Of a stretch of 64,000 nt of DNA, positions 1,488 through 60,824 are shown piece after piece (the first letter of the stretch is position 1; each line of letters begins with the position of its first letter). The position numbers were made by a program, and so were the translations under genes. The stretch comes from a virus: the IMG/VR virus record IMGVR_UViG_3300021400_000020, positions 1 through 64,000 of that record; one strand, 5' to 3'. The notes under the pieces are model-generated. The model saw nothing but the letters and a program-made list of their open reading frames with translations. It did not search any database and had not been told where the DNA came from.

Positions 1488-1553
1488 CCACCGTTCCCGA
1501 AAGTTCTGTTTTCGGGTTCCCCTCGCCACCGTTCCCGAAAGTTCTGCTTTCGG
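1488..1553 (+). repeat. Hairpin-A elements x2 (CCACCGTTCCCGAAAG-TTCTG-YTTTCGG)
   Basis: Copies at 1488-1516 and 1526-1553, directly after the parA stop. Each has a 7-8 bp inverted repeat and a 5-nt loop. Confidence 0.9.
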
Positions 1554-1560
1554 CTTTCAG

Positions 1561-1590
1561 TTTCTCAGTATGCAGCGGTTTTGCCGCTGC
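1561..1590 (+). repeat. TTTCTCAGTA box + hairpin B (GCAGCGG-TTTTG-CCGCTGC)
   Basis: Box at 1561-1570 and hairpin at 1572-1590. The same box+hairpin recurs at 50357-50386 and 50417-50446. Confidence 0.85.
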
Positions 1591-1627
1591 CGTATTCTTC
1601 CATTCTGCTTTCGGTCCCCCACCCCAC

Positions 1628-1657
1628 CCCCCCATTAAACCCATCAACCCCATAAAA
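1628..1657 (+). repeat. C-rich CCCAT-type tract
   Basis: cccccattaaacccatcaaccccataaaa, upstream of the 1685 start. Confidence 0.6.
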
Positions 1658-1684
1658 TAACAACATCTTTAAATCATAAAAATC

Positions 1685-2017
1685 ATGGCTAAGAAAAAAA
1701 TCACCATCCAGCAATTTGCTGACCAGACAGAAGCTGAGTACCGCAACCCCATCAACATCGGCAGCGCAGAGCTTAAAAAACTGAAGCAAAAGCGCATCCG
1801 CAAATACGGACGAGCAAACCCTACGCAGTTCTTCATGCCTGATGAACTCGCCAAAAAAATCAACTTCTGCTCCGTCAGAAACGAAATCGAGAAACAAAAC
1901 CTGCTCTATGCTGTCACACAGTTCTTCTTCTCTACCTACGTCACCGATGAAGGATTCATCGACGAGAAGATGAAGGAAACCATCAACAACATCATCGAGG
2001 AATCCTACTCGCTCTAA
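1685..2017 (+). CDS. Hypothetical protein; candidate ParA partner by position only
   Basis: 110 aa, immediately downstream of parA. No motif recognised. Confidence 0.5.
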   Translation: MAKKKITIQQFADQTEAEYRNPINIGSAELKKLKQKRIRKYGRANPTQFFMPDELAKKINFCSVRNEIEKQNLLYAVTQFFFSTYVTDEGFIDEKMKETINNIIEESYSL

Positions 2018-2026
2018 CCCACCACC

Positions 2027-2055
2027 CCACCGTTCCACGAAATTCTGTTTCGTGG
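2027..2055 (+). repeat. Hairpin-A variant (CCACGAAA-TTCTG-TTTCGTGG)
   Basis: Keeps the CCACCGTT prefix and the loop. Both stem arms are changed in a compensatory way. Confidence 0.85.
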
Positions 2056-2194
2056 CAACCAATGACCAACGAACCACTTTTTTTCACTTTTTCTTTTTTA
2101 TTTCTTTTTAAGAAGGGTATATATCTATAATATCAGTTTGAGAAAATTGAAATAAAATTGTGAAATTGTCAACCTACAAAACAACTGATATTCA

Positions 2195-2425
2195 ACACCT
2201 TACACTTAAAAAGGTAAACAAGATGGTAGAATATCGTAAACAAGATGGTAGATTATTGGCAAAATACGTAAACAAGATGGTAGAATACCGTGAACAAAAT
2301 GGTAGATGGATTTTGCCAAATAAGAACAAAAGGCGATAACGAAGTGAAAAAAGAGGCTTCTTGTTGTAAGTGCAAAAACTTCATTATCAAACACTTACAC
2401 TTAAAAAGGTAAACAAGATGGTAGA
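2195..2425 (+). promoter_or_regulatory. Iteron array (candidate oriV): GTAAACAAGATGGTAGA x5
   Basis: Copies at 2214-2230, 2236-2252, 2268-2284, 2290-2306 (degenerate) and 2409-2425. The outer copies sit inside a 35-bp direct repeat (acacyttacacttaaaaaggtaaacaagatggtaga). The array ends 18 nt before the Rep-like ORF. Confidence 0.8.
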
Positions 2426-2442
2426 TTAAAAATTGAAAAGGT

Positions 2443-3930
2443 ATGAAAAAGGACGACAAAAATAACCCGATAGAAAAGAAAGCGAATCTACTGGATGCAA
2501 GATGGATTAACACGCCCTTCGTCTATACGGAATTCTTCAAAGGATTATCACTCCTGCAACAGGACATCATGATAAAGGTGTCTGACAACATCCAGAACTT
2601 TATCAACTCGTATTTTTCCGACGGCAGAAACAACTCGAAAGACGTTCCAAGACCTCTTTTCACGGAGGACGATAAAGAACACCACCTTGAACCCATACGC
2701 ATCACACTCGCTGAATATGGCATCACAGCTGGGCATTACGACCAAATCGAGAAAGCCGTCAAGGAAATACTCGAAATCAAAGCCAAACGCATCACGCATG
2801 ACGAAAAGGGAGGACTCGTCATTCAGTGGATAAACATCTTCCTGCAAGGCGAAACACCCATCACCACAGAAGGATATACCTTCACAAGCAAGAACGGAGA
2901 ACTCAAAACCGTCACACGCTCTAAAGGATGGCTCGACTTCCGAATCAATCCAGAAGTCGCTGACTGGGTATTCGATATGTCGAAAGGCTATGTCAACCAT
3001 CCTAACATCATCGCACGTATCAGCACGGCATCACACACTCCACAACTCTACTCCCTCCTCAAACACAAATGCGAACAGTCAGGCAAGGGAAAACTCACCG
3101 TCAACGAAATCAAAGACTACTTAGGACTCTTCGTCAAGAACGAGAAGACAGGTGAAAAAACCTACCAACTGCCTAAATACTCGCAGTTCAAGAAGTACGT
3201 GCTCCAGAAAGTACAAAGCGACCTCGTGCGCATGAGCCAAGAGAAACAAATCGACATCACCTTCGACTTCCACGAAATCATGCCCAATGGACGAAAGACA
3301 GGCGACCCACTCTACATTGAATTCAAACTGCACAAGACAGCAATGGACAAGAAGAAATATAGGATGGCTGCCAACAAGAAAATCGTCGATACACTCATGA
3401 AACGATGTGGTGACCTAAAGGAAGCACTCATCGAACCTATCATCATCAAGGTCAAGGATGAAGACTTCAGCGACTTCTCATCCTACGTCTATCAGGAACT
3501 GCCAGGCATCATCGAACACCACTACCCAGAAGATGTGGCGGCATACACCATCGCGCTACTTCGCAACTGGGTGAAGAACCGACTCAAGAAGATGCAGGAG
3601 GCAACTCAACTGAACCTGTTCGAACAAGTAAACGAAAAACAAAACTACACACCAAAAAAGAACAAAGGGGAATTCGCAGAAGAATGGCAACAGATACTTC
3701 GTGAATACGACGGCATCCTCCACCCTGTCCTGCAAAAGGCAAAGCACCAAGGCAGCATCGACGGATTCATCTGGATAGAATTCAATACCTACGAGGAATA
3801 TCAGCAGTACATCCAAATGACCGAACATAACCCATCGGAAATGAACACCTTAATGAATACCGTCAGAAAGGTCATGGGAGGCATGGACCACGGCAGAGTC
3901 CTCAAAACTGGCTACAAGAAATCCAACTAA
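2443..3930 (+). CDS. Putative iteron-binding replication initiator (Rep)
   Basis: 495 aa, directly downstream of the iteron array and next to parA. No strict catalytic motif recognised, so the call is mostly from context. Confidence 0.55.
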   Translation: MKKDDKNNPIEKKANLLDARWINTPFVYTEFFKGLSLLQQDIMIKVSDNIQNFINSYFSDGRNNSKDVPRPLFTEDDKEHHLEPIRITLAEYGITAGHYDQIEKAVKEILEIKAKRITHDEKGGLVIQWINIFLQGETPITTEGYTFTSKNGELKTVTRSKGWLDFRINPEVADWVFDMSKGYVNHPNIIARISTASHTPQLYSLLKHKCEQSGKGKLTVNEIKDYLGLFVKNEKTGEKTYQLPKYSQFKKYVLQKVQSDLVRMSQEKQIDITFDFHEIMPNGRKTGDPLYIEFKLHKTAMDKKKYRMAANKKIVDTLMKRCGDLKEALIEPIIIKVKDEDFSDFSSYVYQELPGIIEHHYPEDVAAYTIALLRNWVKNRLKKMQEATQLNLFEQVNEKQNYTPKKNKGEFAEEWQQILREYDGILHPVLQKAKHQGSIDGFIWIEFNTYEEYQQYIQMTEHNPSEMNTLMNTVRKVMGGMDHGRVLKTGYKKSN

Positions 3931-3943
3931 GCCACCACTCCTG

Positions 3944-3971
3944 CCACCGTCCCCGAAAGTTTCGCTTTCGG
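3944..3971 (+). repeat. Hairpin-A element
   Basis: ccaccgtccccgaaagtttcgctttcgg, 14 nt after the Rep stop. A TTTCTCAGCA box follows. Confidence 0.9.
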
Positions 3972-4010
3972 TCTTCGTTTCTCAGCAAGTCGCGCTTCTG
4001 GCATGGCAAT

Positions 4011-6240: not shown

Positions 6241-7104
6241 TTAAAAGTCCTCCTCTTCCAATTCCTCCACCTCTTTATATGCAGGAGTTTCGCCATTGCC
6301 ATCATCATCCACCTCGTCAGCTTCTCCGTATGCAGCGGTTCTGCCGTTGCCATCATCATCCACCTCGTCAGTTTCTCTGTATGCAGCGGTTCTGCCGCTG
6401 CCATCATCGTCCACCTCGTCAGCTTCTCCGTATGCAGCGGTTCTGCCGCTGCCATCATCGTCCACCTCGTCAGTTTTTCTGTATGCAGCGGTTCTGCCGC
6501 TGCCATCATCGTCCAGCGAACGACGCTCCAACTCTTCCATGCGTTGCTCCAGCATCTGCTGAATATGGTCCTTCGTACCACCATATCTGTTATACAAGGC
6601 TATCAACTCCTTACGGGTAATCGTCTTCTTGTCACTACTAATCGTCTCGACACGGGAGGTGAGGAATATAGGCAACTGAGCTGTATTGCTGGCTGCCTCT
6701 ACCGCACTGTCCTCCTTGTCCAAGTGGTCTATGTCCTTCAGCAACTCAGCTCCCTTGATTTTTGCCGTGTTGTCACCCACTGCATCACCATGACGAATGG
6801 AATCCATCGCCACCCTACGCACAATCACCTTCGACATCTCACGACTACTGTTCCTTTGACAAAGCGAAAGAATATGTAGGAAAATCTGCTTGTCTATCAC
6901 AATCTGCCAAGTTCGCCTTCCCTTCCGCTTCAACCACATGTCAACATCCATATAGGGATTGTCTTCGAATCTGTGATATAACTCTAAACATAACTTCACT
7001 CGCTCACGCTGCTTGTCACCTAAGCGCAGCTCCTCCAACGGAATTCCCAGCTCAATATGACGTGTCACCTGCTGCATGGTGTGCTGACTCGGTTCTGTAC
7101 CCAT
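6241..7104 (-). CDS. Hypothetical protein upstream of terL (small-terminase candidate by position) with acidic repeat tail
   Basis: 287 aa. The C-terminus is five 17-aa repeats (DDDGSGRTAAYxxxDEV). Confidence 0.6.
   Translation of the reverse strand: MGTEPSQHTMQQVTRHIELGIPLEELRLGDKQRERVKLCLELYHRFEDNPYMDVDMWLKRKGRRTWQIVIDKQIFLHILSLCQRNSSREMSKVIVRRVAMDSIRHGDAVGDNTAKIKGAELLKDIDHLDKEDSAVEAASNTAQLPIFLTSRVETISSDKKTITRKELIALYNRYGGTKDHIQQMLEQRMEELERRSLDDDGSGRTAAYRKTDEVDDDGSGRTAAYGEADEVDDDGSGRTAAYRETDEVDDDGNGRTAAYGEADEVDDDGNGETPAYKEVEELEEEDF
6259..6513 (-). repeat. 51-bp tandem repeat x5 inside the CDS; each unit contains hairpin B
   Basis: Each unit carries gcagcggttctgccg(c/t)tgc, the same stem as intergenic hairpin B, with loop TTCTG. 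Confidence 0.85.
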
Positions 7105-7172
7105 AATTTTATAATTTTGTTATGATAAAATTTCAAAATATTAAAATCTCAGAATTTCAAAATGTAATAATA

Positions 7173-7237
7173 CCACCGTTCCCGAAAGTTCCGCTTTCGG
7201 TTCTTTCTTTCCCTGTTCCCGAAAGTTTCGCTTTCGG
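7173..7237 (+). repeat. Hairpin-A elements x2
   Basis: Copies at 7173-7200 and 7212-7237, between two minus-strand genes but in + orientation. Confidence 0.9.
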
Positions 7238-7243
7238 CTCTCA

Positions 7244-13569: not shown

Positions 13570-13953
13570 ATGGAAAGAAAAAACGACAGACAAACGTGTG
13601 CAATCACCATCTACAAGCCTACAGGAAATGCAGAGAACCTGACAAGCGAACAGGACAAGCAAGGCATCCTTCAACACTTCAACGAAAAATTCGCACAACT
13701 CACTGAGAAACAGAAAAAAGAATTACTGCTGAACATCACAAGGGCTATCTCCACATCCACACTCCCCATCCGACTGCTCGAACGATTCTCAACAGACTTT
13801 GGAAATAAGCCGTGGAACTACATAGCCATCGATACAAACCAGAACATCATCGGCATCGTATATGACGGACCTGAGCCATTCGCCACCGACGGAGTACCAA
13901 AGAAATACATCTACGAATTCATAGAACCTCTACCACTCCCAGTTTCTCAGTAA
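13570..13953 (+). CDS. Hypothetical protein
   Basis: 127 aa. Its last codons form a TTTCTCAGTA box. Confidence 0.65.
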   Translation: MERKNDRQTCAITIYKPTGNAENLTSEQDKQGILQHFNEKFAQLTEKQKKELLLNITRAISTSTLPIRLLERFSTDFGNKPWNYIAIDTNQNIIGIVYDGPEPFATDGVPKKYIYEFIEPLPLPVSQ

Positions 13954-13960
13954 CCAAAAG

Positions 13961-14139
13961 CCACCGTTCCCGAAAGTTCTGCTTTCGGGTTCCCCTCGCC
14001 ACCGTTCCCGAAAGTTCCGCTTTCGGGTTCCCCTCGCCACCATTCCCGAAAGTTCCGCTTTCGGGTTCCCCTCGCCACCATTCCCGAAAGTTCCGCTTTC
14101 GGTCATTAGTTTCTCAGTAACCGAAAGTTTCGCTTTCGG
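13961..14139 (+). repeat. Tandem hairpin-A array (38-bp unit x4 plus a boxed terminal copy)
   Basis: Units start at 13961, 13999, 14037 and 14075 (ccaccgttcccgaaagttccgctttcgggttcccctcg). A TTTCTCAGTA box and a fifth hairpin follow at 14121-14139. Confidence 0.95.
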
Positions 14140-14150
14140 TCATCAAAAAA

Positions 14151-14179
14151 TCCCATTAACCCCATCAACCCCATCACCC
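14151..14179 (+). repeat. (AACCCCATY)-type tract running into the start codon
   Basis: tcccattaaccccatcaaccccatcaccc followed directly by ATG at 14180. Confidence 0.85.
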
Positions 14180-15595
14180 ATGCTCGGAGAATTCCTGTCA
14201 TCTATCATCGAAAGACCCATCTGGAGAGAACGACCCGCCACACCAGGACAAGCCCTCATAGAACTGGTCATACTCGCACTCCACAAAAATGAATACGCTC
14301 AGCGACGAGGAATAGACATCCCCATCGCATACGGAGAGGTGTGCCTGTCACGCGAGGAAATGGCTTACCGATGGAAGTGGTCACGTAACAAGGTTGACTA
14401 CTTCTTGGTACGACTGAAAAGGTACGGCTGGATACATATTCGCAAAACACCGATAATCAATGTATTGACATTCTTTTTCTCTCCTTTTTTTAAACTCTAT
14501 GGTACGGCTGAAAGTACGGCTCATGGTACGGCTCATGGAACGACTGAAAGTACGACAGAAAGTACGGCTCATGGAACGACTGAAGACTTTTTTCAGGAAG
14601 CCCGAATTATCAGCGACGAGAAGGTTGGGAAATACGATAGCAAACGTATTCCAATACAAACGTCCGATACACCGCTATCATCTGCAAATCAAGACTTTGC
14701 ATGGGCAATGAAACTGACTAACGAAGCTCTCGGCATACAAGAGGGGTGGGGTGGGGAGGTAGCAGCTATCAACAGCCTGCAAGACTATATGAATATATAT
14801 ATGAATGGGATGAATGGTACGGCTCAAAATGAGAAAAATGGTACGGCTCAAAGCAGTTTTCAAAAACGAAAGAAACAAAGACAAAACGAAAGAAAAGAAC
14901 CAAAAGAAAGAAAAAAAGAAACAAAGAAAGAAAAAATAACAAACACAATTTCTTTAGGATGGATAAACCATAAACCTAAAGAAAATTGTGTCTTTCTTAA
15001 CGAAAGCGCCGCTGGTGCGGCGACAGAGAGAGACGATGATTTTCTTGGGGAAAACCACGAGAGGGGGATGGAGAAGGACAGCACTCAGCCAATGGAGAAA
15101 GATAGTCTGCAGACGAATGAGAGAACACAGATAGAAAACCAACAAAATCCAAAAGCCGCCGCCGCTGCCGACGACCCCGCTGCCGCGAAAATCGACAAGA
15201 AAGCCTGGAAACAGGAACTCACCAGAACCGTACTCGAAGAAATCAGAAGATTCACCAACGACTTCATCGACAACATCGAACCCAAGGAGGACATCACACG
15301 ACGATGCTCCACCGTATGCTGGCACAAAGTGCCTGTCCACCACCTCGGCGAAACGGAAAACGCATACTTGTATATCCTCTACCTGCGCTACCTCGTCTTG
15401 AAATGCCCGAACATCTGCGCGTCTATGAAGAAACTGCCAACTCAACAGCAATACCTACAACTCGTTGAACTTTTCGGACACAAACTCGTCAACAAGAAAA
15501 CGGATCTGCTCGAAGGCTATTGCGACCGATACCATTACAAGACACTCTACCAACCATTGCTCGATTGGTGCCAACGGGAAAAACAGAAGAAATGA
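14180..15595 (+). CDS. Hypothetical protein; possible wHTH N-terminus with low-complexity middle
   Basis: 471 aa. N-terminus has ...REEMAYRWKWSRNKVDYFLVRLKRYGWIHI. Middle contains GTAESTAHGTAHGTTESTTESTAHGTTE repeats and a KE-rich stretch. Confidence 0.6.
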   Translation: MLGEFLSSIIERPIWRERPATPGQALIELVILALHKNEYAQRRGIDIPIAYGEVCLSREEMAYRWKWSRNKVDYFLVRLKRYGWIHIRKTPIINVLTFFFSPFFKLYGTAESTAHGTAHGTTESTTESTAHGTTEDFFQEARIISDEKVGKYDSKRIPIQTSDTPLSSANQDFAWAMKLTNEALGIQEGWGGEVAAINSLQDYMNIYMNGMNGTAQNEKNGTAQSSFQKRKKQRQNERKEPKERKKETKKEKITNTISLGWINHKPKENCVFLNESAAGAATERDDDFLGENHERGMEKDSTQPMEKDSLQTNERTQIENQQNPKAAAAADDPAAAKIDKKAWKQELTRTVLEEIRRFTNDFIDNIEPKEDITRRCSTVCWHKVPVHHLGETENAYLYILYLRYLVLKCPNICASMKKLPTQQQYLQLVELFGHKLVNKKTDLLEGYCDRYHYKTLYQPLLDWCQREKQKK

Positions 15596-18256: not shown

Positions 18257-18261
18257 CTCCC

Positions 18262-18331
18262 ACCACCCTCCCATCCTCCCCATCAATCCCATCAATCCCA
18301 TCAACCCCACCAACCCCATTAACCCCATCCC
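18262..18331 (+). repeat. Longest CCCAT-type tract, running into ATG 18332
   Basis: ccatcaatcccatcaatcccatcaaccccaccaaccccattaaccccatcccATG. Confidence 0.85.
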
Positions 18332-19348: not shown

Positions 19349-19507
19349 CATCGTCGAAAACAAAAAAACGGCAACAAAACATTGACTGATTAGAGGTCTG
19401 GTTAAAGAGGCTTTTACACCTAAATAAACAAGCCCAACGTGAAAAGCAGCACGGCAAAAATTGCTAAAAATAACAAAATTTTCAAACTTAATAAAACTTT
19501 TTACATT

Positions 19508-21443: not shown

Positions 21444-21472
21444 ATTTCAAACTTTTAAAATTTTACATCAAC
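21444..21472 (+). promoter_or_regulatory. Conserved upstream box ATTTCAAACTTTTAAAAYTTTACAWCAAC, copy 1
   Basis: Near-identical to 25422-25450. Both abut an ATG. Confidence 0.5.
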
Positions 21473-37521: not shown

Positions 37522-37554
37522 TTCCGTTGTTTCCCTGCAATCCTTTTTCTCTCG

Positions 37555-37619: not shown

Positions 37620-37679
37620 CACAAAAGCGAGGAAGTGACAACAACCGTTGCCACTTCCCTGCTTTTTCGTGTTTGTCAA

Positions 37680-40600: not shown

Positions 40601-43600
40601 TGATGTCGTCGAAATTATCATAGATGGCATCCTTGGCAGTCTTGTTCAGCTTCAAGCCACTCTGCGTAATGAGATATTCCATCATGTTACCTTGACGCAT
40701 GTTCTGAACGCCCCAGTTGTCCTGGCTGTTTTTCAACTCCGACTTAGGAAGGGCATCCACCAGTCGCTGCATCGTCCTACGAAGCGCACTCTCAATGACA
40801 CTCGTATTGCGGTCGCCTACTTCCTCGGTCAACTTGTCGCGCACGCCCGTCCAACGGTTTTCACGAGTCGTTCCATACTTCTCTTCCAACAGCTTTTCAG
40901 CGGCTTCCTGCTTCTTCAGCACGATAGTTTCACGAATCTTGCTGTTCAGGAGGTCACGGGCTTGCGTCTGGTTCTTTAATAGGTTCGTCTCGCTAAGTTG
41001 AAAACCGAGGTAGCTCTGCATCACGCCATTTAAGTCGTTAATCGTCTTCTTCAACTCTCGATGGCTATCTACATTCTGCTCATTGTTCTTGGTGAGCTGG
41101 GAAATACGATCCGAGAGTTGACGACTCTTTGCAATCATCTCGTCCTCCTCCTTGGCGGCGGCAGCGATGGCTTCGTTAAACTCCTTTGTGGCTTCTACTC
41201 CCTTGCGGATGTACTGAATCAACTTAATGATACCATCAAGCACAGCGAATACAATAAAGGTCTTGAGTGCCGACTTCAATCCTTCTATCGCCACCTTGAA
41301 TGTCTGTGCAGCTCCTTGGGCTGCAACCAGCCGCTGCCAGAACTGCTTGAGGGCTCTGCTACCATGTTCCAAGGCTTGACGAAACTTCGTGCCGATATTC
41401 AACTGAAGGGAAATCAACGTAAGAATAAGCGCCTTGATGGTGGATTGCCACGAGACGATACTCTGAGAACCTTTCTGCATCCACGAAAGGAAATTGCCCA
41501 AGCCCTTGATGATACCATTGAAGAAGTCATAGATAACACTGTTGGTAAACAGCTCATTGAAGGCATTTCTCAGTCGGGCAAGACTACCTGCGGCATTATC
41601 CTGCACCTTCGTGAACTCACGCGACATCACACTCACATTGCCCATACCGACGGTGGCACTCTCATAACCCTCACTGGCATACTGCAAGGCATCACCCAAG
41701 GCAGCGGTATTTGTCGCCAGAGAACTGAGCGTCATCGCCAGTCCTGCACTCTGTTTCATGCGTCCTGTACCCACGGCATTCATCACCTCCTGCACCTTAC
41801 CTGCCCTGTCTTCGGCATCCTCAATCTTTTCCAACACGGCAACCAAGGCTTCATAGCTCTTGCCCTCGTCAATCAGACTTTGCAGATAGGTAGGAGCCAG
41901 CTCTGCGGCTTTCGCCATCTCGAAGGTGTGGTTCATCACGCCACGAATCAAGTGTATCAAGGCGGTACTGCCCTGCTCTGCACTGATACCGACGGCATCC
42001 AAACGTCCTCCCAAGGCAATCAGTTGGGGCATGGTCATCTTGGCTGTAGCACCCACTGCGCCAAGTCTTCTCACGTACTCCATGATACCCTGATAGCTGG
42101 CGGCGGTATTGTTACCGAGGTTCAGAATGGAACTACCTGCGGCATCCAAGGCTTCGCCAACATCGTCACCATGTTTTTTCGTCTCACCCAGCACGTCATT
42201 CACCTTTGCCAGTCCTGCAATGGCTTCCGCTCCACCAATATCTTCACCAAGGGTGGCATTGATACGTTCACCCATCTCCACGAAACCCTTCATGCCTTCA
42301 AGCCCATGCTCGGTATAGATACCTAACTTACCTGCTTGCGTGGCAAACTCCATCAGGTCGTGGGTGGTGGTGCGGGTGTCGAGGTCCTGCAAGCTCTTCG
42401 ACAAGCGGCGCACCTCCTCAGTCGTCATGTTCGTTACCTTCTGCACATTCGTCATCTGGTCACTGAGTTCCATGATATGCCCGAACTGCTTGCGTACCTC
42501 GTTCATGATGGCATTGAAGCCCAGATAGACGGCGATATAGCTTTTGAGTCGGTTGATGGCGCCACGAATACCACTTTGATGATGTGTCCAAGTTTCTGTC
42601 AACTCCTTCATCTGCTTGTCAATGGCTTTCATCTGCGCCGCCTTCGCTATATACTCGTCCTGCGTCAGTTCTGTATTGTTGATTTCGAATTTCAGACGCT
42701 TATACGCCATCCTCAATTCGTCGATATTCTTCACACCCTTTGGGTTTTTAAGAATTTCATCAAACCGCTCGGCAGTCAAGGTGGCAGTCTCCTGCAACAT
42801 GTCGAGACGCTGTAACTCGCGCTCAACGGCAATGATTTTTTCTTGTCCGTCCTTGCTCGTCACGTCAAGCGTACTCTTATAGGCACGGAGTCCATTGCGT
42901 AAGCGGTCGAGGTCGGTCAACGTACCCTTGAAGCCATTGCCGCTGTTCACATTCTCCAAGTATTTCTTGGCTTCCAGCACACGGTCATTGGCTTGCTGCA
43001 AGTCGGCAGTCATCTTGCGGATAGTTTCATCAACCCTCGATAAACCTCCCTCATTGGTGGTCTCCAAGTTCTCCCTGTACTGCTGCAAGAGCTTGATATT
43101 CTCCTGAATCTTGGTGGTACTCTGCGACCCCGATGTGTAGTTCATCGCTTGCTGGGCTTTGTCTTCCAACGAGGTCTGCGCACGATGCTGGATGGTGTCG
43201 TTGATGGCTTCCAACTGGTTCTTCACCCGCTCAAGCACCCGCTCTTCCATGTTTCCGGCATCCACCATGCCCTGCAAGAAACGTTGCACATCCGACAACT
43301 GCTTGTCGGTGGCGTTGCCGATGTCGGCAAGGACATTTCCTCCACCTGTCTTCATCCAGTTACTGAACTTAACGCTGTTGATGCGCTTCTCATAAATCGC
43401 CCATTGCGATTGGGTCTTGGCAAGGGTCTGCTGCTCCTGCTTCAGCACCTCAATCACACGCAAATTCGTGGCAACACTGTTGTTGGAGGCGTTCTCGCTG
43501 GTTTGCCAGACAGATTGAAAACCTGCCTTCAGTTCGTTCAAGCGGTTCTTGATGAGCTGCATCACCTCCGACTTACGGGCAAACTCCTCGGCGGAAACGC

Positions 43601-44957: not shown

Positions 44958-44972
44958 GGCTATATATTGTTA

Positions 44973-45021
44973 TTTTCACTTTGCACTCTTCACTTTTCAC
45001 TTCTCACTTTTCCCTTCTCAC
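44973..45021 (-). repeat. Heptad leader repeat (GTGARAA)x7 upstream of the tape measure start
   Basis: Minus strand reads gtgagaa gggaaaa gtgagaa gtgaaaa gtgaaga gtgcaaa gtgaaaa. It ends 15 nt before the ATG. Confidence 0.85.
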
Positions 45022-45545
45022 GTCCAGTTCCTCGTCGTCTGACGCTTGTAGCCATTGCTACGGAGGAACTGTCCTTGTGTGGTGGCATTCGCCACACTCT
45101 GCATGATGACAACACTGCCCGTATAAGCATACTGCCGAGCAAGCCTATCCATCAGCATCCTGGCGTGAAGACGAATTTCACTCATCATAAACGGCTTCGC
45201 CATACGAGGCTTGCCGTCAGGACGAGGGATAGGTCTGAGCGGCTTACCCGTCGTCAGCTGGGGAATAGTCATGTATTTCATGCCCTTGCCAACCGCCATC
45301 TCCACATACTGAGCATAGTTCATGTAATAAAACTGAATCAGGGCTTCGTCACCATTCGCATTGTTGTGGATGTCGGCATGGATGCTGCGCTCCAAGTCAC
45401 CCGAAAACTTTTTGCCGTAGGGACTAATCTCTAAGTCCTGCATGTTCTGAAGAATCTGCTCCGTCGTTTCAAGGGCGAAATAATGAATGCGTTGCTGAAC
45501 CTTTTTGTTCATCAACGCAAATTCATCTATCACTTGCTTTGCCAT
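45018..45545 (-). CDS. Hypothetical virion protein, possibly HK97 gp10-like (start moved to ATG 45545)
   Basis: 175 aa. ...GDLERSIHADI...YYMNYAQYVEMAVGKG pattern. A -7 box lies 18 nt upstream. Confidence 0.5.
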   Translation of the reverse strand: MAKQVIDEFALMNKKVQQRIHYFALETTEQILQNMQDLEISPYGKKFSGDLERSIHADIHNNANGDEALIQFYYMNYAQYVEMAVGKGMKYMTIPQLTTGKPLRPIPRPDGKPRMAKPFMMSEIRLHARMLMDRLARQYAYTGSVVIMQSVANATTQGQFLRSNGYKRQTTRNWT

Positions 45546-45570: not shown

Positions 45571-45630
45571 GTGATAGACAACCAAAATCATAAGGACAAA
45601 TTTCTTAGTCATCCCTGTCTTTCTCCGTAT

Positions 45631-46012
45631 GCGAAAGTTCCGCTTTCGCCTTTCATCCTCCCCCGAAAGTTCTGCTTTCGGTCCTTAGTTTCTCCGTATC
45701 TGAAAGCTCTGCTTTCAGCCATCAAAGAAACAAGGTTTCCACGCTCTCGTGAAAACCTTGAACTTTTGAGTCTCAATTCACGCAAAAAAATTGAAACTCC
45801 ATCTTTAAATCATGGCAAAGATACGACTTTCATCGTTCCCCTCAAAATCTTTCCGTCAATTTCTGCACCACCGTCCACGAAAGTTCCTGCCACCGTTCCC
45901 GAAAGTTCCTGCCACCGTTCCCGAAAGTTCCGCTTTCGGGTAAAAAGAAAGTTCCGCTTTCGGTTTAGCTTTCAGCCCTTGCTTTCTCCGTACCCGAAAG
46001 TTCCGCTTTCGG
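45631..46012 (+). repeat. Dense pile-up of hairpin-A elements and fragments
   Basis: Copies at 45631-45649 (GCGAAAG variant), 45660-45681, 45700-45718 (CTGAAAG variant), 45912-45940, 45946-45963 (degenerate) and 45993-46012. Half-units of 22 bp at 45868-45889 and 45890-45911. Confidence 0.9.
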
Positions 46013-46014
46013 CT

Positions 46015-46560
46015 TCAGTCCTCCTCTCCGAACAGCATCCCGTTCACATACTCATCCTCCACCACGCAGATATTGTACTGTTCCGGCAGATGAATCGTCA
46101 GATACACTGCCACCCATCCGTCATAAAACGGAGCTTGCGTCTTGTACTCTATATCACTAAAGTCCATCCTGCGAAGGAACTTCGGACAGCGTTGCTTATC
46201 ATGCTGCAACTTGTTCAGCCAGTTCAGGAAATTGCGCATGTGTTCCTTGGCTTCTTTCTTCGCATCCCTATTCGCGTGACCGTCACCTGCGTCCGTACTT
46301 CGCACACAGAAGTGGATGGTAAAACTCTGCTTGTCGTAGGCAAACTGCTCTATCTCGCCCTCCAGGTTACTCTCCATGATGACACACGGACTCATCCGCA
46401 CGTTCATTCCCTGCATAAAGTTCTGCAGGTCCCAGTAACTGTTGCAGAAATAAAACCTACGACGTTCGGAATTCTTGGCGAAGTTATGTTGCATCTTCTT
46501 ATAGATGCTACACCAGAACTCTACTAACTGAGGATAGTCACTGACTTCACTTAATTTCAT
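46015..46560 (-). CDS. Hypothetical virion-block protein (start moved to ATG 46560)
   Basis: 181 aa. Confidence 0.65.
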   Translation of the reverse strand: MKLSEVSDYPQLVEFWCSIYKKMQHNFAKNSERRRFYFCNSYWDLQNFMQGMNVRMSPCVIMESNLEGEIEQFAYDKQSFTIHFCVRSTDAGDGHANRDAKKEAKEHMRNFLNWLNKLQHDKQRCPKFLRRMDFSDIEYKTQAPFYDGWVAVYLTIHLPEQYNICVVEDEYVNGMLFGEED

Positions 46561-46734
46561 GTTTTCGTTATTGTTTTCGTTATCGTTCAAGAAATCCCTT
46601 CAAATCCTTTAAATCCTTGATTTTTATCTACGGAGTCTCGGAGTAAAGGAATTTCCTGTTTCCGTTTTCGTTATCGTTATCGTCCAAGAAATCCTTTCAA
46701 ATCCTTAAAATCCCTGACCTCTTTAAATCCCTGA
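46561..46734 (+). repeat. Dispersed repeat, copy 2 (see 1-125)
   Basis: Two AAATCCTT-rich blocks (46588-46626 and 46685-46734), each preceded by (CGTTWTC)-type short repeats. Confidence 0.7.
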
Positions 46735-47295: not shown

Positions 47296-48417
47296 TTAAA
47301 ATCGTCTAACACCCTTCACGAAAGGAGCAAAGACACTGTTGCATGGGTTCTTAGGGTCGTAGTCATTGGAAGGAGGACAGTGCTTAGGGCATTGCTGCTG
47401 TCTGTTCAGACGCTTCTGCTCTTCTTCTGGCAACGCATTCCCGTCCTCGTCATACCACAAGCCGTCATCACCGAGGGTGGGAGGTGCTGGCACATAGAGA
47501 GGAGAGGTTTTCACGTAAGGGCGGAAAGAATCCTGATGTGCGACGATACACCTCTTGGCTAAGGCAAGCTGCATGTCTCCACGCTCCACACTGTCCTTGC
47601 GACCCTCGCCCGAAAGGGATTCAGCATAGCGCACCAACGCACGACGTAGGTAATTCTTTGCTTTCTTGCGCCAGATATAATGTTCCACCTGACTTGCTGC
47701 ATCCTCACCATCATTCCCATCCGACCCATTATCCCCATCATGCCACTCATGAACAAAAGCAGAAAACAACTCCTCACCGATGGCTGGTTCCAGATATACG
47801 CTCTGAGCCTCCTGAAGATTCGGGAACATCTCAATGAACTGCTTCCTGCCATCCTTCAGAGTCGTGTAGTTTCTGAGTTCATGGGCTGTCGTAAATAGCA
47901 AGTCAGCCTTATAGTAGAAGAACTCGCTTTCCTTCCATTCTGTCTGATACAACGGTTCTTTAGACTCCGCATCCAACTCTAAAAGGGTCAGCAAATTGTC
48001 CTCGCTTTGCCGCGCTTTACGCCAAGCATCACGCTCGAAGCGGTCCAAGGCTTTCTGCTCTGCCGATTCGTAGTAGTCTGCAGACATCTGATTAAAACCA
48101 CCTCCCTCATTGAAACTCAACGCATACACACCTGCATTGTCTGCCAACGTGTAGTAGAGGGCGATGCGCTGACACTGGCGGAGAATCCTGATATTCAAGT
48201 CTCTGTTATTGAATGTGGCGTTTGTCAAGCCTGTGTCCTGCAAGTTCTCCACAAGACTGTCATACTCGGTGGCGAGCTTATCCAACAAGGCATCACCCAA
48301 GAGGGGCGTGAGGCGGACATTCACTTCATTGTCGATGTCACTAATCAAGCGGTCGAGGTTCGTCCACTTACTCTGAGGATAGATAGCTTCTATCTCTTTG
48401 ATATTACAGAAAAACAT
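47296..48417 (-). CDS. Hypothetical virion-block protein
   Basis: 373 aa, preceded by the heptad leader repeat. Confidence 0.7.
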   Translation of the reverse strand: MFFCNIKEIEAIYPQSKWTNLDRLISDIDNEVNVRLTPLLGDALLDKLATEYDSLVENLQDTGLTNATFNNRDLNIRILRQCQRIALYYTLADNAGVYALSFNEGGGFNQMSADYYESAEQKALDRFERDAWRKARQSEDNLLTLLELDAESKEPLYQTEWKESEFFYYKADLLFTTAHELRNYTTLKDGRKQFIEMFPNLQEAQSVYLEPAIGEELFSAFVHEWHDGDNGSDGNDGEDAASQVEHYIWRKKAKNYLRRALVRYAESLSGEGRKDSVERGDMQLALAKRCIVAHQDSFRPYVKTSPLYVPAPPTLGDDGLWYDEDGNALPEEEQKRLNRQQQCPKHCPPSNDYDPKNPCNSVFAPFVKGVRRF

Positions 48418-48428
48418 ATTTCATTCTA

Positions 48429-48463
48429 TTTTTCACTTTTCACTCTTCACTTTTCACTTTTTA
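48429..48463 (-). repeat. Heptad leader repeat (GTGARAA)x4
   Basis: Minus strand reads gtgaaaa gtgaaga gtgaaaa gtgaaaa, about 12 nt upstream of ATG 48417. Confidence 0.85.
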
Positions 48464-50227
48464 TTTGCTCTCCGTTGATACAACCCCCGTCTTGCTGTTG
48501 TCCAGCGTCGTGAGGTTCTGCTGTTCTATCACCCATTTCAAGTGCTTGTCACAGTCATTGAAGGTGGAAATCATGTCCAAGAGCCATAGGTAACGACGCT
48601 GACTTGGACTCACCTGCTGCTCCTTCAGCAAATGCAACTCACGCTGGAACGTGCCTCCCTTACCAGAACTACCAGGACGTGAGCCGATCAGTTCGGGATG
48701 AACACCCATTGCAAAGAAGATGATACTGCTCACTTCCTCCAACTCGGCTTTTAAGTCCTTGGCGTTCTGAGGTTGTGGCACATCTACAATCTCAATCGAC
48801 TTCACGAGCGTCTTCTCATCTTGGCTCAGATAGGCATCCAATGCAACGGTCTTACCGTTATTGTCGCGCTTCTTCAGGAATTGGTTGATGTCGTTAATCA
48901 GACCCGTCTTGATAGCATCCTGCTCGTCCTCGTTCGTCGCTCCCATCTGGTCGTAGAGTTTCTGAAGGTAGTTGAGATTGATGTAGATGATTTTTCCCCA
49001 CATCGTAGAGTTGTTCCTCGCCGCTGCCTTGTCGAACATCATTGTATAGGCATAGTTATACACATAGCTCAGGAAGATACTCCACCACATAGGCTGTGGA
49101 TAGTAAGGGCGGAGTATGTTCGCACGTTTCAGAGGGATGCAGAACCATGCCGTGCGCTCATTCACCTTCTGACGTTGTTGACGCGATACCCACGAATTCA
49201 ATTCTTCAATGGCACTGTCGGAATTGATGACAGGGTAGGCGATGACCTCGCCAAATTGCAAGTCGGGAGTGCATTCCTTGCGCCAACGCTCGGCATAGAA
49301 GACATTCTCAATCTTCAAGTCCTTGCTCATCTCCTCGTAACGGGTGCAGACACAAGGCAGAAAACCGAGTTTCACAATCTTAGGATTCCACTTGCCGCTC
49401 TTACCTCGCGACAAGCCAATCGTAGGAAAGGCGATGTTCATGTGGGCATCGTCAGTACAATACTTCTCATAATGCTCACAGAGATTGTTGTTCTCAAGGA
49501 ACTCACGAAGCCATTGACTTGTGCTTTCCCATTTTTCATAGTCTTTGACAAGCTGATCGATTTCCTTGTCAAGGTACTCTTTGAGACGAGTATGCTTGCC
49601 ACCCTTACGCGGACCTTCCTCGCCACCGTTCCCGAAAATTTGGTTTTCGGGTAAAAGGTTACCGTTCCCGAAGGTTCTGCCTTCGGATTCCCCGTTCACC
49701 CCATCATCCTGCGACTCATCATCATCCAAGGCATCTCGTCGTGAAGATAACTCTATAAGTCTATTCAGAATCAGCGTACCAGCAAGAGGGTAGGGGATGC
49801 TCTCTTCCTTGACCGTCCCTCCAGCGTATCGTGCCCATACGTAAGTGGGTTTGGGACCATGCCCTTGCGTGAGGTTGATGATGTATTCCATAGCAGCAGC
49901 AGTGTAGGGGAGGGCTGCCACTAACTGCGCAATCCTGTTCGGCTGGTCGTTGGCACTGCCCCAGGCGATATACTTGCCTTTGACGGTCTTGCTATCCACA
50001 CTGATTGCCTGTATTTGCTTACCGTCGGGAATGAGGTTGCTGCCCGTACCAAGCATCGACTTGTTCGCCCATTCCGCGCAGCCACTCACCACCGAAGGGT
50101 CGTTATTCTTGCTGTTGCCAAACCCTGTCACCGTGATGGGAATATAACCACGTTTCTGCAAGCTCTGAATCTTGCTGAAGGCTTTATCAACGGTTTTTTT
50201 AAACTGATTCTTCTGATTCTTTGCCAT
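48461..50227 (-). CDS. Portal-like protein (tentative) with embedded repeat module
   Basis: 588 aa, first gene of the minus-strand virion block, with a -7 box 25 nt upstream. The portal call rests on size and position only. Residues ...GRTFGNGNLLPENQIFGNGG... are encoded by two hairpin-A copies. Confidence 0.45.
   Translation of the reverse strand: MAKNQKNQFKKTVDKAFSKIQSLQKRGYIPITVTGFGNSKNNDPSVVSGCAEWANKSMLGTGSNLIPDGKQIQAISVDSKTVKGKYIAWGSANDQPNRIAQLVAALPYTAAAMEYIINLTQGHGPKPTYVWARYAGGTVKEESIPYPLAGTLILNRLIELSSRRDALDDDESQDDGVNGESEGRTFGNGNLLPENQIFGNGGEEGPRKGGKHTRLKEYLDKEIDQLVKDYEKWESTSQWLREFLENNNLCEHYEKYCTDDAHMNIAFPTIGLSRGKSGKWNPKIVKLGFLPCVCTRYEEMSKDLKIENVFYAERWRKECTPDLQFGEVIAYPVINSDSAIEELNSWVSRQQRQKVNERTAWFCIPLKRANILRPYYPQPMWWSIFLSYVYNYAYTMMFDKAAARNNSTMWGKIIYINLNYLQKLYDQMGATNEDEQDAIKTGLINDINQFLKKRDNNGKTVALDAYLSQDEKTLVKSIEIVDVPQPQNAKDLKAELEEVSSIIFFAMGVHPELIGSRPGSSGKGGTFQRELHLLKEQQVSPSQRRYLWLLDMISTFNDCDKHLKWVIEQQNLTTLDNSKTGVVSTESK
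49623..49686 (+). repeat. Two hairpin-A variants inside the portal-like CDS
   Basis: 49623-49651 (CCCGAAAA-tttgg-TTTTCGGG) and 49660-49686 (CCGAAGG-ttctg-CCTTCGG). Followed by caccccatcatcc. Confidence 0.9.
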
Positions 50228-50259: not shown

Positions 50260-50309
50260 ATATCTCCCCACCAAAATCAAGCGGACATTTTTCTCCCCCG
50301 CCCCTCCTG

Positions 50310-50446
50310 CCACCGTCCCTGCCACCGTCCCCGAAAGTTCCGCTTTCGGTTTCCAGTTTCTCCGTATGCAGCGGTTTTGCCGCTGCCCCTTCCCCTGTTC
50401 CGCTTTCGGCTTTCAGTTTCTCCGTATGCAGCGGTTTTACCGCTGT
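50310..50446 (+). repeat. Hairpin A (one and a half copies) + two box/hairpin-B units
   Basis: Half-copy at 50310-50321, hairpin A at 50322-50349, hairpin B at 50368-50386, half-site at 50391-50409, and hairpin B' at 50428-50446. Confidence 0.9.
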
Positions 50447-50519
50447 CCCTTCCTCCTGTTTCTATTTCTGCTTTCCCCTCCCCATCTTTTTTGTCCTTTC
50501 CTCTGTCATAGATTCCTCC

Positions 50520-55470: not shown

Positions 55471-55543
55471 CAAGCGAATTTTAAAGAGATAAAATTTTTT
55501 ACAAATCCATTTTCGCACCCTCTGCGAATCTACTTTCCAAAAA

Positions 55544-55611
55544 CCACCGTTCCCGAAAGTTCTGCTTTCGGGTTCAGAAAAAACCACCGTTCCCGAAAGT
55601 TCTGCTTTCGG
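55544..55611 (+). repeat. Hairpin A x2 in the dcm 5' leader
   Basis: Copies at 55544-55572 and 55584-55611 (40-bp spacing). Confidence 0.9.
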
Positions 55612-55632
55612 TCATCAGAAAGAAAGAAATCT

Positions 55633-57512: not shown

Positions 57513-57521
57513 CCCCTCCAG

Positions 57522-57661
57522 CCACCGTCCCCCGAAATTTTGTTTCGGGTTTCAAAAGCCACCGTTCTCAAAAGTTTCGCTTTCAGGTTCCCCTCTCCAC
57601 CGTCCCCGAAAGTTCTGCTTTCAGTCCTTCGTTTCTCCGTACCTCTCGGCTCAGCCGAGAG
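57522..57661 (+). repeat. Hairpin A x3 + box + hairpin C (CTCTCGG-CTCAG-CCGAGAG)
   Basis: Hairpin A at 57522-57549, 57559-57587 (degenerate) and 57597-57624. Hairpin C at 57643-57661. Confidence 0.9.
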
Positions 57662-57703
57662 CCCACTCATAAAAACCATTAACCCCATAAACCCCAAAAA
57701 CAA

Positions 57704-59362: not shown

Positions 59363-59365
59363 AAG

Positions 59366-59480
59366 CCACCGTTCCTGCCACCGTTCCCAAAAGTTTCGCT
59401 TTCGGGTTCCCCTCTCCACCGTCCCTGAAACTTCTGCTTTCAGTCCTTCGTTTCTCCGTACCTCTCGGCTCAGCCGAGAG
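59366..59480 (+). repeat. Hairpin A half-copy + 2 copies + box + hairpin C
   Basis: Half-copy at 59366-59377, hairpin A at 59378-59406 and 59416-59443, and hairpin C at 59462-59480. Confidence 0.9.
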
Positions 59481-59520
59481 CTTTCTCACCAAACCCATTA
59501 ACCCCATCAACCAAAAAACT

Positions 59521-59796
59521 ATGACACCTGCAACCATCATTCTCACAGTCTTCCTGATACTGGCGGTTTTTGTTGCTGCACAGCTCGACGACAAACTTCT
59601 CAAGGAACGCCACGTCACTAAGGGACTACTCGAACAACTGGGACAAGCCAAGGCTCAGACGAAAGACCTTGAAAAACGTCTTCAAGAAGCCAACACAACC
59701 ATTCAGAAGCTCAATCACAAGCTCGAAGCTTGTGGAATCGATTACGACAGACTCCTGACCGACTACCACCGTTTGGAAAACGAAAATCTAAAATGA
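59521..59796 (+). CDS. TM + coiled-coil small protein
   Basis: 91 aa. N-terminal TM (IILTVFLILAVFVAA) followed by a coiled coil. Confidence 0.6.
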   Translation: MTPATIILTVFLILAVFVAAQLDDKLLKERHVTKGLLEQLGQAKAQTKDLEKRLQEANTTIQKLNHKLEACGIDYDRLLTDYHRLENENLK

Positions 59797-59797
59797 T

Positions 59798-60046
59798 ATG
59801 GCAAGAATCTCCAGAGTTATCAAACTAAAACTGGGACCAGACACGCACATCATCAAGAAGAATGCTGCCGACAAACAAGGTACTCAGGCTTGCCAGCAAT
59901 GCTCTTTGCGAAGCCTCTGCTTCGAAATCGGAAAGACAGAGCGAAAACGACTCTGCGACGCTATCCTCATAGAAGTTTATGACTCACCATCAGACTTCTC
60001 TCCCTACGGCGGACACTTCGAAGTCTCCAGCCATAACCCAGTCTAA
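59798..60046 (+). CDS. Hypothetical protein
   Basis: 82 aa. Confidence 0.5.
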   Translation: MARISRVIKLKLGPDTHIIKKNAADKQGTQACQQCSLRSLCFEIGKTERKRLCDAILIEVYDSPSDFSPYGGHFEVSSHNPV

Positions 60047-60066
60047 ATCCCTTTTCTCCATCCCCA

Positions 60067-60094
60067 CCACCGTCCCCGAAAGTTCCGCTTTCGG
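60067..60094 (+). repeat. Hairpin A
   Basis: ccaccgtccccgaaagttccgctttcgg. Confidence 0.9.
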
Positions 60095-60113
60095 TCAAAA
60101 CAACCCATCAACA

Positions 60114-60755
60114 ATGAATAACGAAAAAGCCCTGCTCTACCTCTTTGTCTCAGCCGACGAACACCGACCTTCCATCACGGCACCATTCCTTCAGCATGGC
60201 AAGGTATGTGCCACAGACGGACGTAATCTCATCCGCATCAATGCAGCACTATGCGAAAATACATATCCCGAAACCGTCAACGACCGCACACCTCCTAATA
60301 CGGAAACAGTGATTCCTGCACCCACACGCAACGAAAAACTGACACAGAAAATGCTATCGGACGCATTTGCAAAAGCACCGGAAAAAGAAAAAGACCGTAC
60401 CTGCCCTGAATGCGGAGGGAACGGAGAGGTATATTGGCATTACCACGATAGGGACGGTAAACATTATACTCATTGGTACGGTTGTCCCGTGTGCGAAGGA
60501 ACAGGAGACATTTCCGGCTACAAACCAATCACATGTCAGTTCACTATCAACGGCTGTTATCTGGCTTACGGACACATCAAACTCCTGTCAAACGTTATGA
60601 AATACCTTGAAGTGGACACACTGATACTTCGACACGCGGAAATGCTCGAACACAGAGTCACACCCATGCTATTGGGCGTTGAAGACAAAGACATTGAAAT
60701 AGTCATAATGCCCCTATGCCCTGGTGAAGACATCGAAGAAATCACCATTCTCTAA
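60114..60755 (+). CDS. Beta-clamp (DnaN)-like protein with inserted CxxCxGxG zinc finger, tentative
   Basis: 213 aa from ATG 60114. VCATDGRNLIRI compares with the DnaN ATDGHRL motif. Also FTINGCYLAYGHIKLL and a terminal IVIMPL. Insert is CPECGGNG...CPVCEGTG. Confidence 0.4.
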   Translation: MNNEKALLYLFVSADEHRPSITAPFLQHGKVCATDGRNLIRINAALCENTYPETVNDRTPPNTETVIPAPTRNEKLTQKMLSDAFAKAPEKEKDRTCPECGGNGEVYWHYHDRDGKHYTHWYGCPVCEGTGDISGYKPITCQFTINGCYLAYGHIKLLSNVMKYLEVDTLILRHAEMLEHRVTPMLLGVEDKDIEIVIMPLCPGEDIEEITIL

Positions 60756-60759
60756 CCCA

Positions 60760-60824
60760 CCACCGTTCCTGAAAGTTCTGCTTTCAGTCTTTCGTTTCTC
60801 CGTACCTCTCGGCTCAGCCGAGAG
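60760..60824 (+). repeat. Hairpin A (CTGAAAG variant) + box + hairpin C
   Basis: Hairpin A at 60760-60787 and hairpin C at 60806-60824. Confidence 0.9.

Follow-up and report, generated by a model that had tools for sequence, protein, structure and literature searches.

The closest known counterparts of the elements considered here are the tagged superfamilies of repetitive extragenic palindromes (REPs), namely the GTAG- and CGTC-tagged palindromes, which include RPE-4 and RPE-6 of Rickettsia and dRS3 of Neisseria (Di Nocera et al. 2013, PMC3733652). Short palindromic repeats have been studied extensively in Proteobacteria, yet scarcely in Bacteroidales, the dominant gut order. We analyzed a family of hairpin elements in 64 kb of a phage-plasmid, positions 1–64,000 of IMG/VR record IMGVR_UViG_3300021400_000020 (hereafter the window). 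On balance we consider it likely that these hairpins belong to a REP-like, tagged palindromic repeat family endemic to Bacteroidales DNA, which has bloomed in this phage-plasmid lineage. The family is apparently undescribed. A search of Rfam found no family at gathering score across the window, nor any at E ≤ 10 for 13900–14200, and a literature search with the element's sequence strings returned only unrelated chance primer matches, in agreement with a preliminary description of this DNA whose author had not recognized the motif.

The preliminary description had named REP/BIME-type elements as the best analogue, and in size, tag, stem-loop and dispersed copies this comparison holds. Like tagged REPs, the window elements fall within 20–40 nt, carry a conserved unpaired tag at the foot of an 8–9 bp stem with a loop of 4–5 nt, and occur in tens of copies that are mostly intergenic, with some in frame within genes (compare the Rickettsia RPEs); lineage-specific abundance is a further shared trait. 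Their unit of 32–34 nt, with 35 matches in 64 kb, also agrees with the general definition of a REP as a short palindrome in many dispersed copies, and as for CGTC REPs no transposase gene is seen beside the copies. What sets the element apart from canonical REPs is its tag, the head-to-tail arrangement of its arrays and a strict strand lock. The tag has 10 nt (AGCCACCGTT) as opposed to 4 nt, and among 103 aligned matches the four nucleotides at the stem read CGTT in 85 and CGTC in 8. CCCG/CGGG forms the stem foot, whereas the stem of CGTC REPs opens with two A-T pairs, and their 3-nt tail (consensus CCA) has no counterpart here. Unlike in GTAG/RAYT REPs, there is no GT[AG]G at the 5′ foot; the GTGG of the tag complement lies 3′ of the hairpin. 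The inverted pairs of BIMEs and REPINs never occur and no opposite-strand copy was found; instead, arrays are exclusively head-to-tail, each locus or replicon keeps to one strand, and the bloom is in a phage-plasmid.

Hairpins termed ‘atypical’ flank the genes of the Bacteroidetes-specific Y1 subclass 2.6 (Quentin et al. 2018, PMC6006769). With REPs of the RAYT/Y1 type the window element shares a foot, a GC-rich stem of 8–10 bp and a short pyrimidine-rich loop (published loops TCC, TCT and TCCT; PMC6006769), but the feet published for subclass 2.6 (GCTAG, GCTG, CTGG) and its stems are unlike those found here, and none comes from Bacteroidales (PMC6006769). A cognate Y1 gene flanked by copies (a REPtron) was not found by a crude regular expression in 1.6 Mb of fetched loci, which included no complete host genome.

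Repeated motifs at gene boundaries also have precedents in phages. Promoter-early stem-loop (PeSL) cassettes of T4-type phages, the subject of Arbiol et al. in 2010, reportedly mediate modular shuffling. Like these, the window elements are repeated intergenic stem-loops that flank small genes, and gene-content differences between relatives (the window and locus L117) map to them; unlike PeSLs, they have no associated promoter, also occur in host chromosomes, and are locked to a strand rather than to transcription. In mycobacteriophages, the start-associated sequences (SAS and ESAS) of Cluster K and the stoperators of Cluster A are specific to phages and follow the direction of transcription. 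The window hairpins resemble both in being multi-copy motifs at the gene boundaries of one phage genome, and C-rich 9-mers found here sit, as SAS do, just before start codons, but the hairpins are neither phage-specific nor transcription-oriented.

Several further classes of element were considered and rejected. Sharing of small repeats between host and phage is already known for MITEs (miniature inverted-repeat transposable elements), including in Prevotella phages (PMC11602168). The unit described here is a single 21-nt hairpin with a 10-nt tag, not a 50–800 bp element flanked by terminal inverted repeats, and shows no duplication. It is too short for an integron attC site (57–141 nt) and has no inverted tag copy past the hairpin; no integrase was found among 30 window open reading frames (ORFs) scanned against Pfam. 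It does not form a CRISPR array, as units abut in a 38-nt tandem without spacers. A Chi- or KOPS-like polar motif (the complement, ACGGTGGC, resembles GCTGGTGG and lies on the G-rich strand) was set aside because it leaves hairpin, arrays and 10-nt tag unexplained, and a possible match to tRNA or to the 16S rRNA 3′ end was likewise considered but not kept.

The hairpin unit and its copies in the window

The unit is ~32–34 nt long and consists of the unpaired 10-nt tag followed by a 21-nt hairpin with an 8-bp stem. The stem foot and the pyrimidine-rich loop (TTYYG) are conserved, while the outer half of the stem varies with compensation. Conservation ends with the AG preceding the tag on the 5′ side and with the last stem base on the 3′ side, and no conserved flank or target-site duplication was seen around the unit. 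The core palindrome CCCGAAAG-N5-CTTTCGGG occurs 25 times at ≤2 mismatches, compared with 0.01 expected from shuffles, and repeat finding returned families of 28–29 copies together with 38-nt head-to-tail tandems. A covariance model, R1, trained on 23 copies of the window together with 11 variants from other genomes, was applied to both window strands with filters off and a cut-off of E ≤ 0.1. This gave 35 matches, all on the + strand, 25 of them full-length and tagged (E 1e-11 to 2e-5) and 10 partial or untagged. The − strand yielded no independent match, only weak mirror images of the palindrome (≤11 bits). The family is genuine, as had been claimed, and every place listed in the preliminary description was recovered by R1. 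Its counts needed revision: about 34 intact copies and 5 half-copies become ~39 hairpins of two classes at 18 places, with ~7 half copies and the coding copies in addition, and the 13 loci of its title become 16–18 both by its own list and by our recount. At ~0.6 per kb, the element density of the window is the highest among the loci examined.

Two classes can be told apart where one had been implied. Class c1 (25 window copies) reads (A)GCCACCGTY, then CCCGAAAG, TTYYG and CTTTCGGG. Class c2 (13 copies) has the tag TTTCTCMGTA and a hairpin of variable stem sequence, which is either the c1 stem or quite different (TGCAGCGG-TTTT-GCCGCTGC or CCTCTCGG-CTCA-GCCGAGAG). In six c2 copies the stem bears no relation to that of c1 (TGCAGCGG/CCGCTGC, CCTCTCGG/CCGAGAG), and these copies had not been listed before. 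The head-to-tail c1–c2 pair occurs ~12 times in the window, and all arrays are head-to-tail with abutting units and a period of 36–38 nt. The individual loci are as follows.

1486–1590, + strand: two c1 (1486–1519, 1524–1557) and a c2 (1561–1590, stem TGCAGCGG/GCCGCTGC), directly past the parA stop at 1484
2025–2058, + strand: c1 variant (stem CCACGAAA/TTTCGTGG; R1 29 bits, E=1.9e-5), after the stop of ORF 1685–2017
3929–3975, + strand: half tag (3929–3941) and c1 (3942–3975), past the stop of the Rep3-like gene 2443–3930
6251–6515, + strand: 51-nt tandem of c2 units (TTTCTCYGTATGCAGCGGTTCTGCCGCTGC); the opposite strand codes DDDGSGRTAAY... in ORF 6241–7104(−)
7171–7241, + strand: c1 (7171–7204) and c2-like unit (7208–7241), between two minus-strand genes and antisense to both
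13959–14140, + strand: largest array, four c1 in a 38-nt tandem (13959–14106) and a c2 (14110–14140), between ORF 13570–13953 and ORF 14180–15595
36890–36923, + strand: single c1 directly at the stop 36889–36891, bordering a 523-bp segment absent from L117
37124–37195, + strand: c1 (37124–37157) and c2 (37163–37195); directly after this pair L117 has an insertion, an extra c1-like hairpin (TCACCGTT tag) with a 560-bp gene
37553–37623, + strand: c1 (37553–37586) and c2 (37590–37623), at the convergent junction with the tape-measure gene 37680–44957(−)
45620–45719, + strand: c2 (45620–45649, stem TGCGAAAG), untagged c1-type unit (45653–45685) and c2 (45689–45719, stem TCTGAAAG), within a minus-strand gene block
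45866–46016, + strand: two half copies (45866–45909), c1 (45910–45943), partial hairpin (45947–45965) and c2 (45983–46016), adjoining the stop codon of minus-strand ORF 46015–46590
49621–49690, + strand: two c1 within the portal-like ORF 48461–50227(−), antisense and in frame (ESEGRTFGNG...PENQIFGNGGEEG)
50308–50447, + strand: half tag, c1 (50320–50353) and two c2 (50357–50387, 50417–50447); L142 has three c2 here
55542–55615, + strand: two c1, upstream of the C5 DNA methylase start at 55633
57520–57662, + strand: three c1 (57520–57628) and a c2 (57632–57662, stem CCTCTCGG/CCGAGAGC), upstream of ORF 57704
59364–59481, + strand: half tag, two c1 (59376–59447) and a c2 (59451–59481), between the stop at 59362 and the start at 59521
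60065–60098, + strand: single c1, upstream of the ATG at 60115
60758–60825, + strand: c1 (60758–60791) and c2 (60795–60825), past the stop at 60755 and upstream of the ATG at 60866

The stems covary. In a model-based alignment of 103 matches (83 distinct), which was fitted to R1 and is thus biased towards structure, six of the eight stem pairs have changes on both sides (49 cells), and none of 500 shuffles attained the observed covariation score or 49 double-change cells. The signal was lost when partner columns were slid. Differing stems are plain in the raw sequences too, with tag and loop conserved across them; compensated variants of the outer four pairs include CCCGACGG, CCCGAAGC, CCCGACAA, CCCCGCAG and CCCACGG. 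These data bear on the idea that the elements are duplex-DNA sites for a replicon-encoded protein (a partition centromere or a repressor), modeled on Cluster A stoperators. Many asymmetric copies in the intergenic DNA of one replicon, the first array of which lies directly past parA, would suit such sites, but compensated variation of the outer stem with the hairpin geometry kept points to a folded single strand and not to duplex sequence. The family is also found in unrelated genomes and inside genes, and its orientation is independent of transcription, unlike that of stoperators. We therefore regard duplex sites as very improbable.

Before six + strand genes the elements follow a fixed order of stop codon, c1 (one to four units), c2, C-rich 9-nt repeats (AWYAACCCC) and ATG (1486–1684, 13959–14179, 37124–37224, 57520–57703, 59364–59520 and 60758–60865). 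The tag starts 0–10 nt past a stop codon in at least eight cases, each hairpin has an RNA folding energy of −12 to −14 kcal/mol, and a T-rich stretch (e.g. TCTTTCGTTTCTC) follows the last c1 before each c2, and only there. The earlier statement that none has a U-tract thus applies to most copies but not to these, and a terminator scan of 45–62 kb flagged two c1 copies preceding c2 as terminator-like. Terminator-like sites in that region showed no excess over shuffles (11 found, 16.6 expected), and with only these two copies passing the scan the elements were rejected as intrinsic terminators. No promoter was associated with the element.

Such an arrangement could be that of dedicated cis-acting RNA elements, in which c1 arrays would serve as terminators, attenuators or 3′ stabilizers, c2 as a processing site or 5′ stabilizer, and the C-rich repeats as an unstructured leader for Shine-Dalgarno-free translation. 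The closest parallels would be the RNase III sites of T7, lambda nut (boxA and boxB) and the SAS/ESAS of Cluster K. The recurrent order, the tags just past stop codons, the U-rich stretches with their two terminator-like copies, and hairpins that are stable as RNA all speak for it. Yet ~9 intergenic copies and the 6251–6515 repeat lie in minus-strand gene blocks or ORFs and are nevertheless + oriented, and 22 kb of + strand genes (14.2–36.8 kb) are without a copy. Stem mismatches on the tag strand (9 G:T versus 16 A:C) show no sign that this strand is selected as folded RNA, there being no wobble bias. Elsewhere, as detailed below, copies are antisense in conjugative transposons and in frame within host enzymes, and relatives of the phage-plasmid manage without the element. 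Overall, we regard RNA elements as an unlikely explanation.

Copies elsewhere in Bacteroidales and their turnover

An exact 27-nt pattern was searched in a collection of species-representative genomes and in metagenomes. The genomes gave 29 loci, nearly all from Bacteroidales (Prevotella, Bacteroides, Phocaeicola, Parabacteroides, Leyella, Ca. Aphodosoma, and metagenome-assembled genomes (MAGs) from horse and sheep), and the metagenomes gave >114. Tag AGCCACCGTT, foot CCCG/CGGG and loop TTYYG are kept across conjugative-transposon, operon and intragenic contexts. Looser DNA patterns in IMG/VR (CCACCGTYCCCGAAAG; a gapped two-tag pattern) gave chance or coding-repeat matches only, L001 excepted, and a megablast of 13 kb of the window against a phage collection gave no match.

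A conjugative transposon carries a single fixed copy in the intergenic DNA that follows a VirB4/TraG-like ATPase gene. This copy (CCCAGCCACCGTTCCCGAAAGTTTTGCTTTCGGGCATCTGGG; L011 5276–5309) is shared without change, flanks included, by at least 16 Bacteroidales species, makes up 85 of the 114 metagenome loci (L061–L174) and is very common in human gut metagenomes. An outer CCCAG/CTGGG pairing lengthens its hairpin. Related transfer-element contigs have 3–7 copies, each directly after a gene and antisense to that gene. Array BLAST against PLSDB and against phage records found one single-copy match in each. A 125-kb Phocaeicola plasmid has two copies and a phage MAG has one; other Bacteroidales mobile elements hold 1–4 copies only.

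Chromosomal context was read from loci of 8–21 kb. In operons of certain Prevotella and Bacteroidaceae MAGs, sense copies lie between ubiE, aroE, purM and other housekeeping genes, as single units or arrays, and host copies are followed by A-rich leaders. Other copies are intragenic. Those in the cobalamin operon sit in frame inside the Pfam domains of a CobD-type aminotransferase and of CbiB, and always read A-T-V-P-E/D. In L029, an ABC ATPase has an N-terminal copy, and its alignment to PDB starts only after that copy. The element inserts peptides into conserved enzymes, and also into the phage portal protein, where its two c1 units fall within a hypervariable linker that some of 17 homologs lack. 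In none of the six frames does the consensus unit contain a stop codon, which fits tolerance inside genes. Placement outside genes, as first reported, accordingly stands for the intergenic copies but not for those in the portal-like ORF and in ORF 6241–7104(−). In the CbiB loop that holds the element in L029, other Prevotella orthologs (P0275, P0283, P0350) have unrelated low-complexity inserts (alignment A5, columns 95–125, e.g. TTPSLSVEGWGEG), which may derive from a different repeat family.

Presence and copy number vary between close relatives. The ubiE–aroE spacer has no copy in three orthologous loci (80–87% AroE identity), one in L015 and four in L028. CbiB orthologs at 87–95% identity contain the loop insert and those at 82–85% lack it, and a syntenic 12–13 kb cobalamin operon carries four copies in one of two genomes but zero in the other. 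At the site of two c2 units of the window, L142 (94% identical to the window) carries three. L117, also 94% identical, differs by a 560-bp gene of its own and by the 523-bp segment found only in the window, both bounded by elements; the two indel sites correspond to window positions 36434–36957 and 37191–37223, with hairpin elements at both junctions. Phage-plasmids with 45% portal identity had no element copies and no GC skew. Such patchy presence and copy-number differences speak for turnover of the element and not for a conserved function.

The preliminary description had implied a punctuation or regulatory system specific to this replicon. That reading fails because copies occur in chromosomes, in conjugative transposons and inside genes, with a fixed strand, and are absent from relatives, while the view of a REP/BIME-like family is partly supported. 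It had also held that equally dense copies throughout the host chromosome would indicate a generic host repeat; chromosomal copies do exist, but the window appears more densely populated than the host loci sampled. Because the family joins chromosomes, conjugative transposons and a phage-plasmid, it offers a marker for host assignment, which here points to a Prevotella-type host. Elements that mark gene-content differences of close relatives also bear on gene shuffling in gut mobile elements.

Strand orientation and possible mechanism

At multi-copy loci outside the window, all copies of one locus lie on the same strand. Relative to neighboring genes, 14 intergenic copies are sense and 17 antisense, and of the intragenic copies 20 are sense and 2 antisense, many of these from homologous loci. 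Given this mixed placement, transcription does not set the orientation of the element. In nearly all loci the tag strand is instead the C-rich strand, whether genes run along or against it. The + strand of the window is both C-rich and A-rich throughout, irrespective of gene direction, with a GC skew of −0.04 to −0.27 that approaches 0 only at 20–28 kb; distant relatives L175 and L177 have no such skew. The bias is also strong in several chromosomal loci (−0.10 to −0.28) and weak in others. The uniform asymmetry of the window suggests one-directional replication or another strand-specific process, and fits a replicon copied in one direction.

Orientation by strand is what might be expected if the elements were single-stranded DNA (ssDNA) signals for replication or transfer machinery, such as primase entry (ssi) sites or nicking and binding sites of HUH relaxases or Rep proteins. 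HUH relaxase and Rep sites use a hairpin with a tag of ~10 nt, like oriT. The strict strand lock in the window (35:0), in conjugative-transposon loci and in the Phocaeicola plasmid (2:0) fits such signals, as do the conservation of both unpaired tag and loop, the uniform strand asymmetry, and the presence in the window of a DnaB helicase and of genes of the transfer-leading-region type (ArdC, PcfJ, methylase-helicase). Copies within housekeeping operons and in conserved enzyme domains of chromosomes do not, and tandem arrays of up to 4–5 units with half copies are unexpected for priming or nicking sites. The low number on other Bacteroidales mobile elements and the lack of any copy in relatives of the phage-plasmid count against it as well, and we doubt that ssDNA signals account for the family.

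Under the REP-like reading, units would multiply or persist via the hairpin in single-stranded DNA at the replication fork. Candidate agents are an HUH/Y1-type enzyme acting in trans, or slippage combined with template switching. Either would tie orientation to the direction of replication and would leave one-strand copies in a one-directional replicon; Y1 enzymes act on the lagging-strand template, which would explain the strand lock. Effects on RNA would be secondary: intercistronic stem-loops would block 3′ exonucleases and partly attenuate read-through, especially at the last c1 unit with its U-rich stretch. Dispersed identical repeats could also serve as junctions for the gain and loss of gene cassettes.

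Several observations weigh against this REP-like reading. No transposase could be linked to the family by a crude HUH...Y regular expression in six frames of the 1.6 Mb of fetched loci, the window included, and a target-site duplication or insertion footprint could not be defined. Only head-to-tail arrays occur here, whereas canonical REPs form inverted dimers. Covariation within a DNA palindrome is in itself no proof that selection acts on a folded structure. The fixed order of c1 array, c2, C-rich leader and ATG looks more designed than random insertion, and is the chief point that a REP-like repeat explains badly, so a regulatory role is kept under consideration. Finally, the correlation with skew in chromosomes is modest, and element-free Prevotella loci have a near-zero to slightly negative coding-strand skew; for this reason the link to replication is stated conditionally here.

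A variant, to which we give quite a low probability, is that tag and hairpin form the recognition site of a putative ssDNA enzyme (an HUH/Y1 nuclease, a relaxase-like protein or a primase) that copies units and swaps cassettes in a strand-specific, replication-coupled manner. If so, this would amount to integron-like exchange without an integron integrase among Bacteroidales chromosomes, conjugative transposons and phage-plasmids. For repeats of the REP type, a strand lock as clean as this one could reveal how they arise.

Gene content and other repeats of the replicon

The window encodes ParA, a Rep3-like initiator after iteron-like repeats, DnaB, PcfJ, ArdC and a large methylase-helicase, along with a C5 methylase, a large terminase, a portal-like protein and a 2425-aa tape-measure protein. 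With ParA and Rep3 beside terminase, portal and tape-measure genes, the window is identified as part of a Bacteroidota-type phage-plasmid. Homologs of the portal at ~45% identity lie on 50–140 kb contigs that also have ParA, Rep3 and a tape-measure gene. The 14200–36800 stretch, in which no hairpin element occurs, contains genes of a kind typical for conjugative elements, among them PcfJ, ArdC and the methylase-helicase. The 20–28 kb segment without GC skew lies inside this stretch and would fit a more recent acquisition.

At least 10 + strand genes are preceded by a run of the 9-nt repeat AWYAACCCC that stops right at their ATG; these runs lack a Shine-Dalgarno sequence and contain hardly any G. 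Of all the DNA fetched, only the window and its close relative L117 have such runs, which could act as an unstructured leader for translation or as an array bound by a protein. Their positions are as follows.

1620–1661, + strand: AWYAACCCC run
14141–14179, + strand: AWYAACCCC run
18259–18331, + strand: AWYAACCCC run
35499–35524, + strand: AWYAACCCC run
36931–36957, + strand: AWYAACCCC run
37196–37224, + strand: AWYAACCCC run
57664–57703, + strand: AWYAACCCC run
59483–59520, + strand: AWYAACCCC run
60827–60865, + strand: AWYAACCCC run
61875–61901, + strand: AWYAACCCC run

Five copies of GTAAACAAGATGGTAGA with 22-nt spacing (2208–2448), just upstream of the Rep3-like gene 2443–3930, are probably iterons of a plasmid origin. 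A conserved AT-rich motif, ATTTCAAACTTTTAAAAYTTTACA..CAACATG, stands directly upstream of three + strand genes (19479–19519, 21444–21484 and 25422–25462) and may be a shared promoter or leader. At 44966–45023 and 48423–48466, (AAGTGAA)n on the sense strand (TTCACTT on the + strand) precedes minus-strand operons, those of the tape-measure gene and of the gene at 47296–48417. Other coding tandem repeats are located at 14499–14582, 21784–21940, 22241–22384 and 42967–44298, and the types comprise 12-nt (GTAESTAH...), 24-nt (KPEATKET) and 18-nt (TEEPTT) repeats. The tape-measure gene has an internal duplication of ~984 nt.

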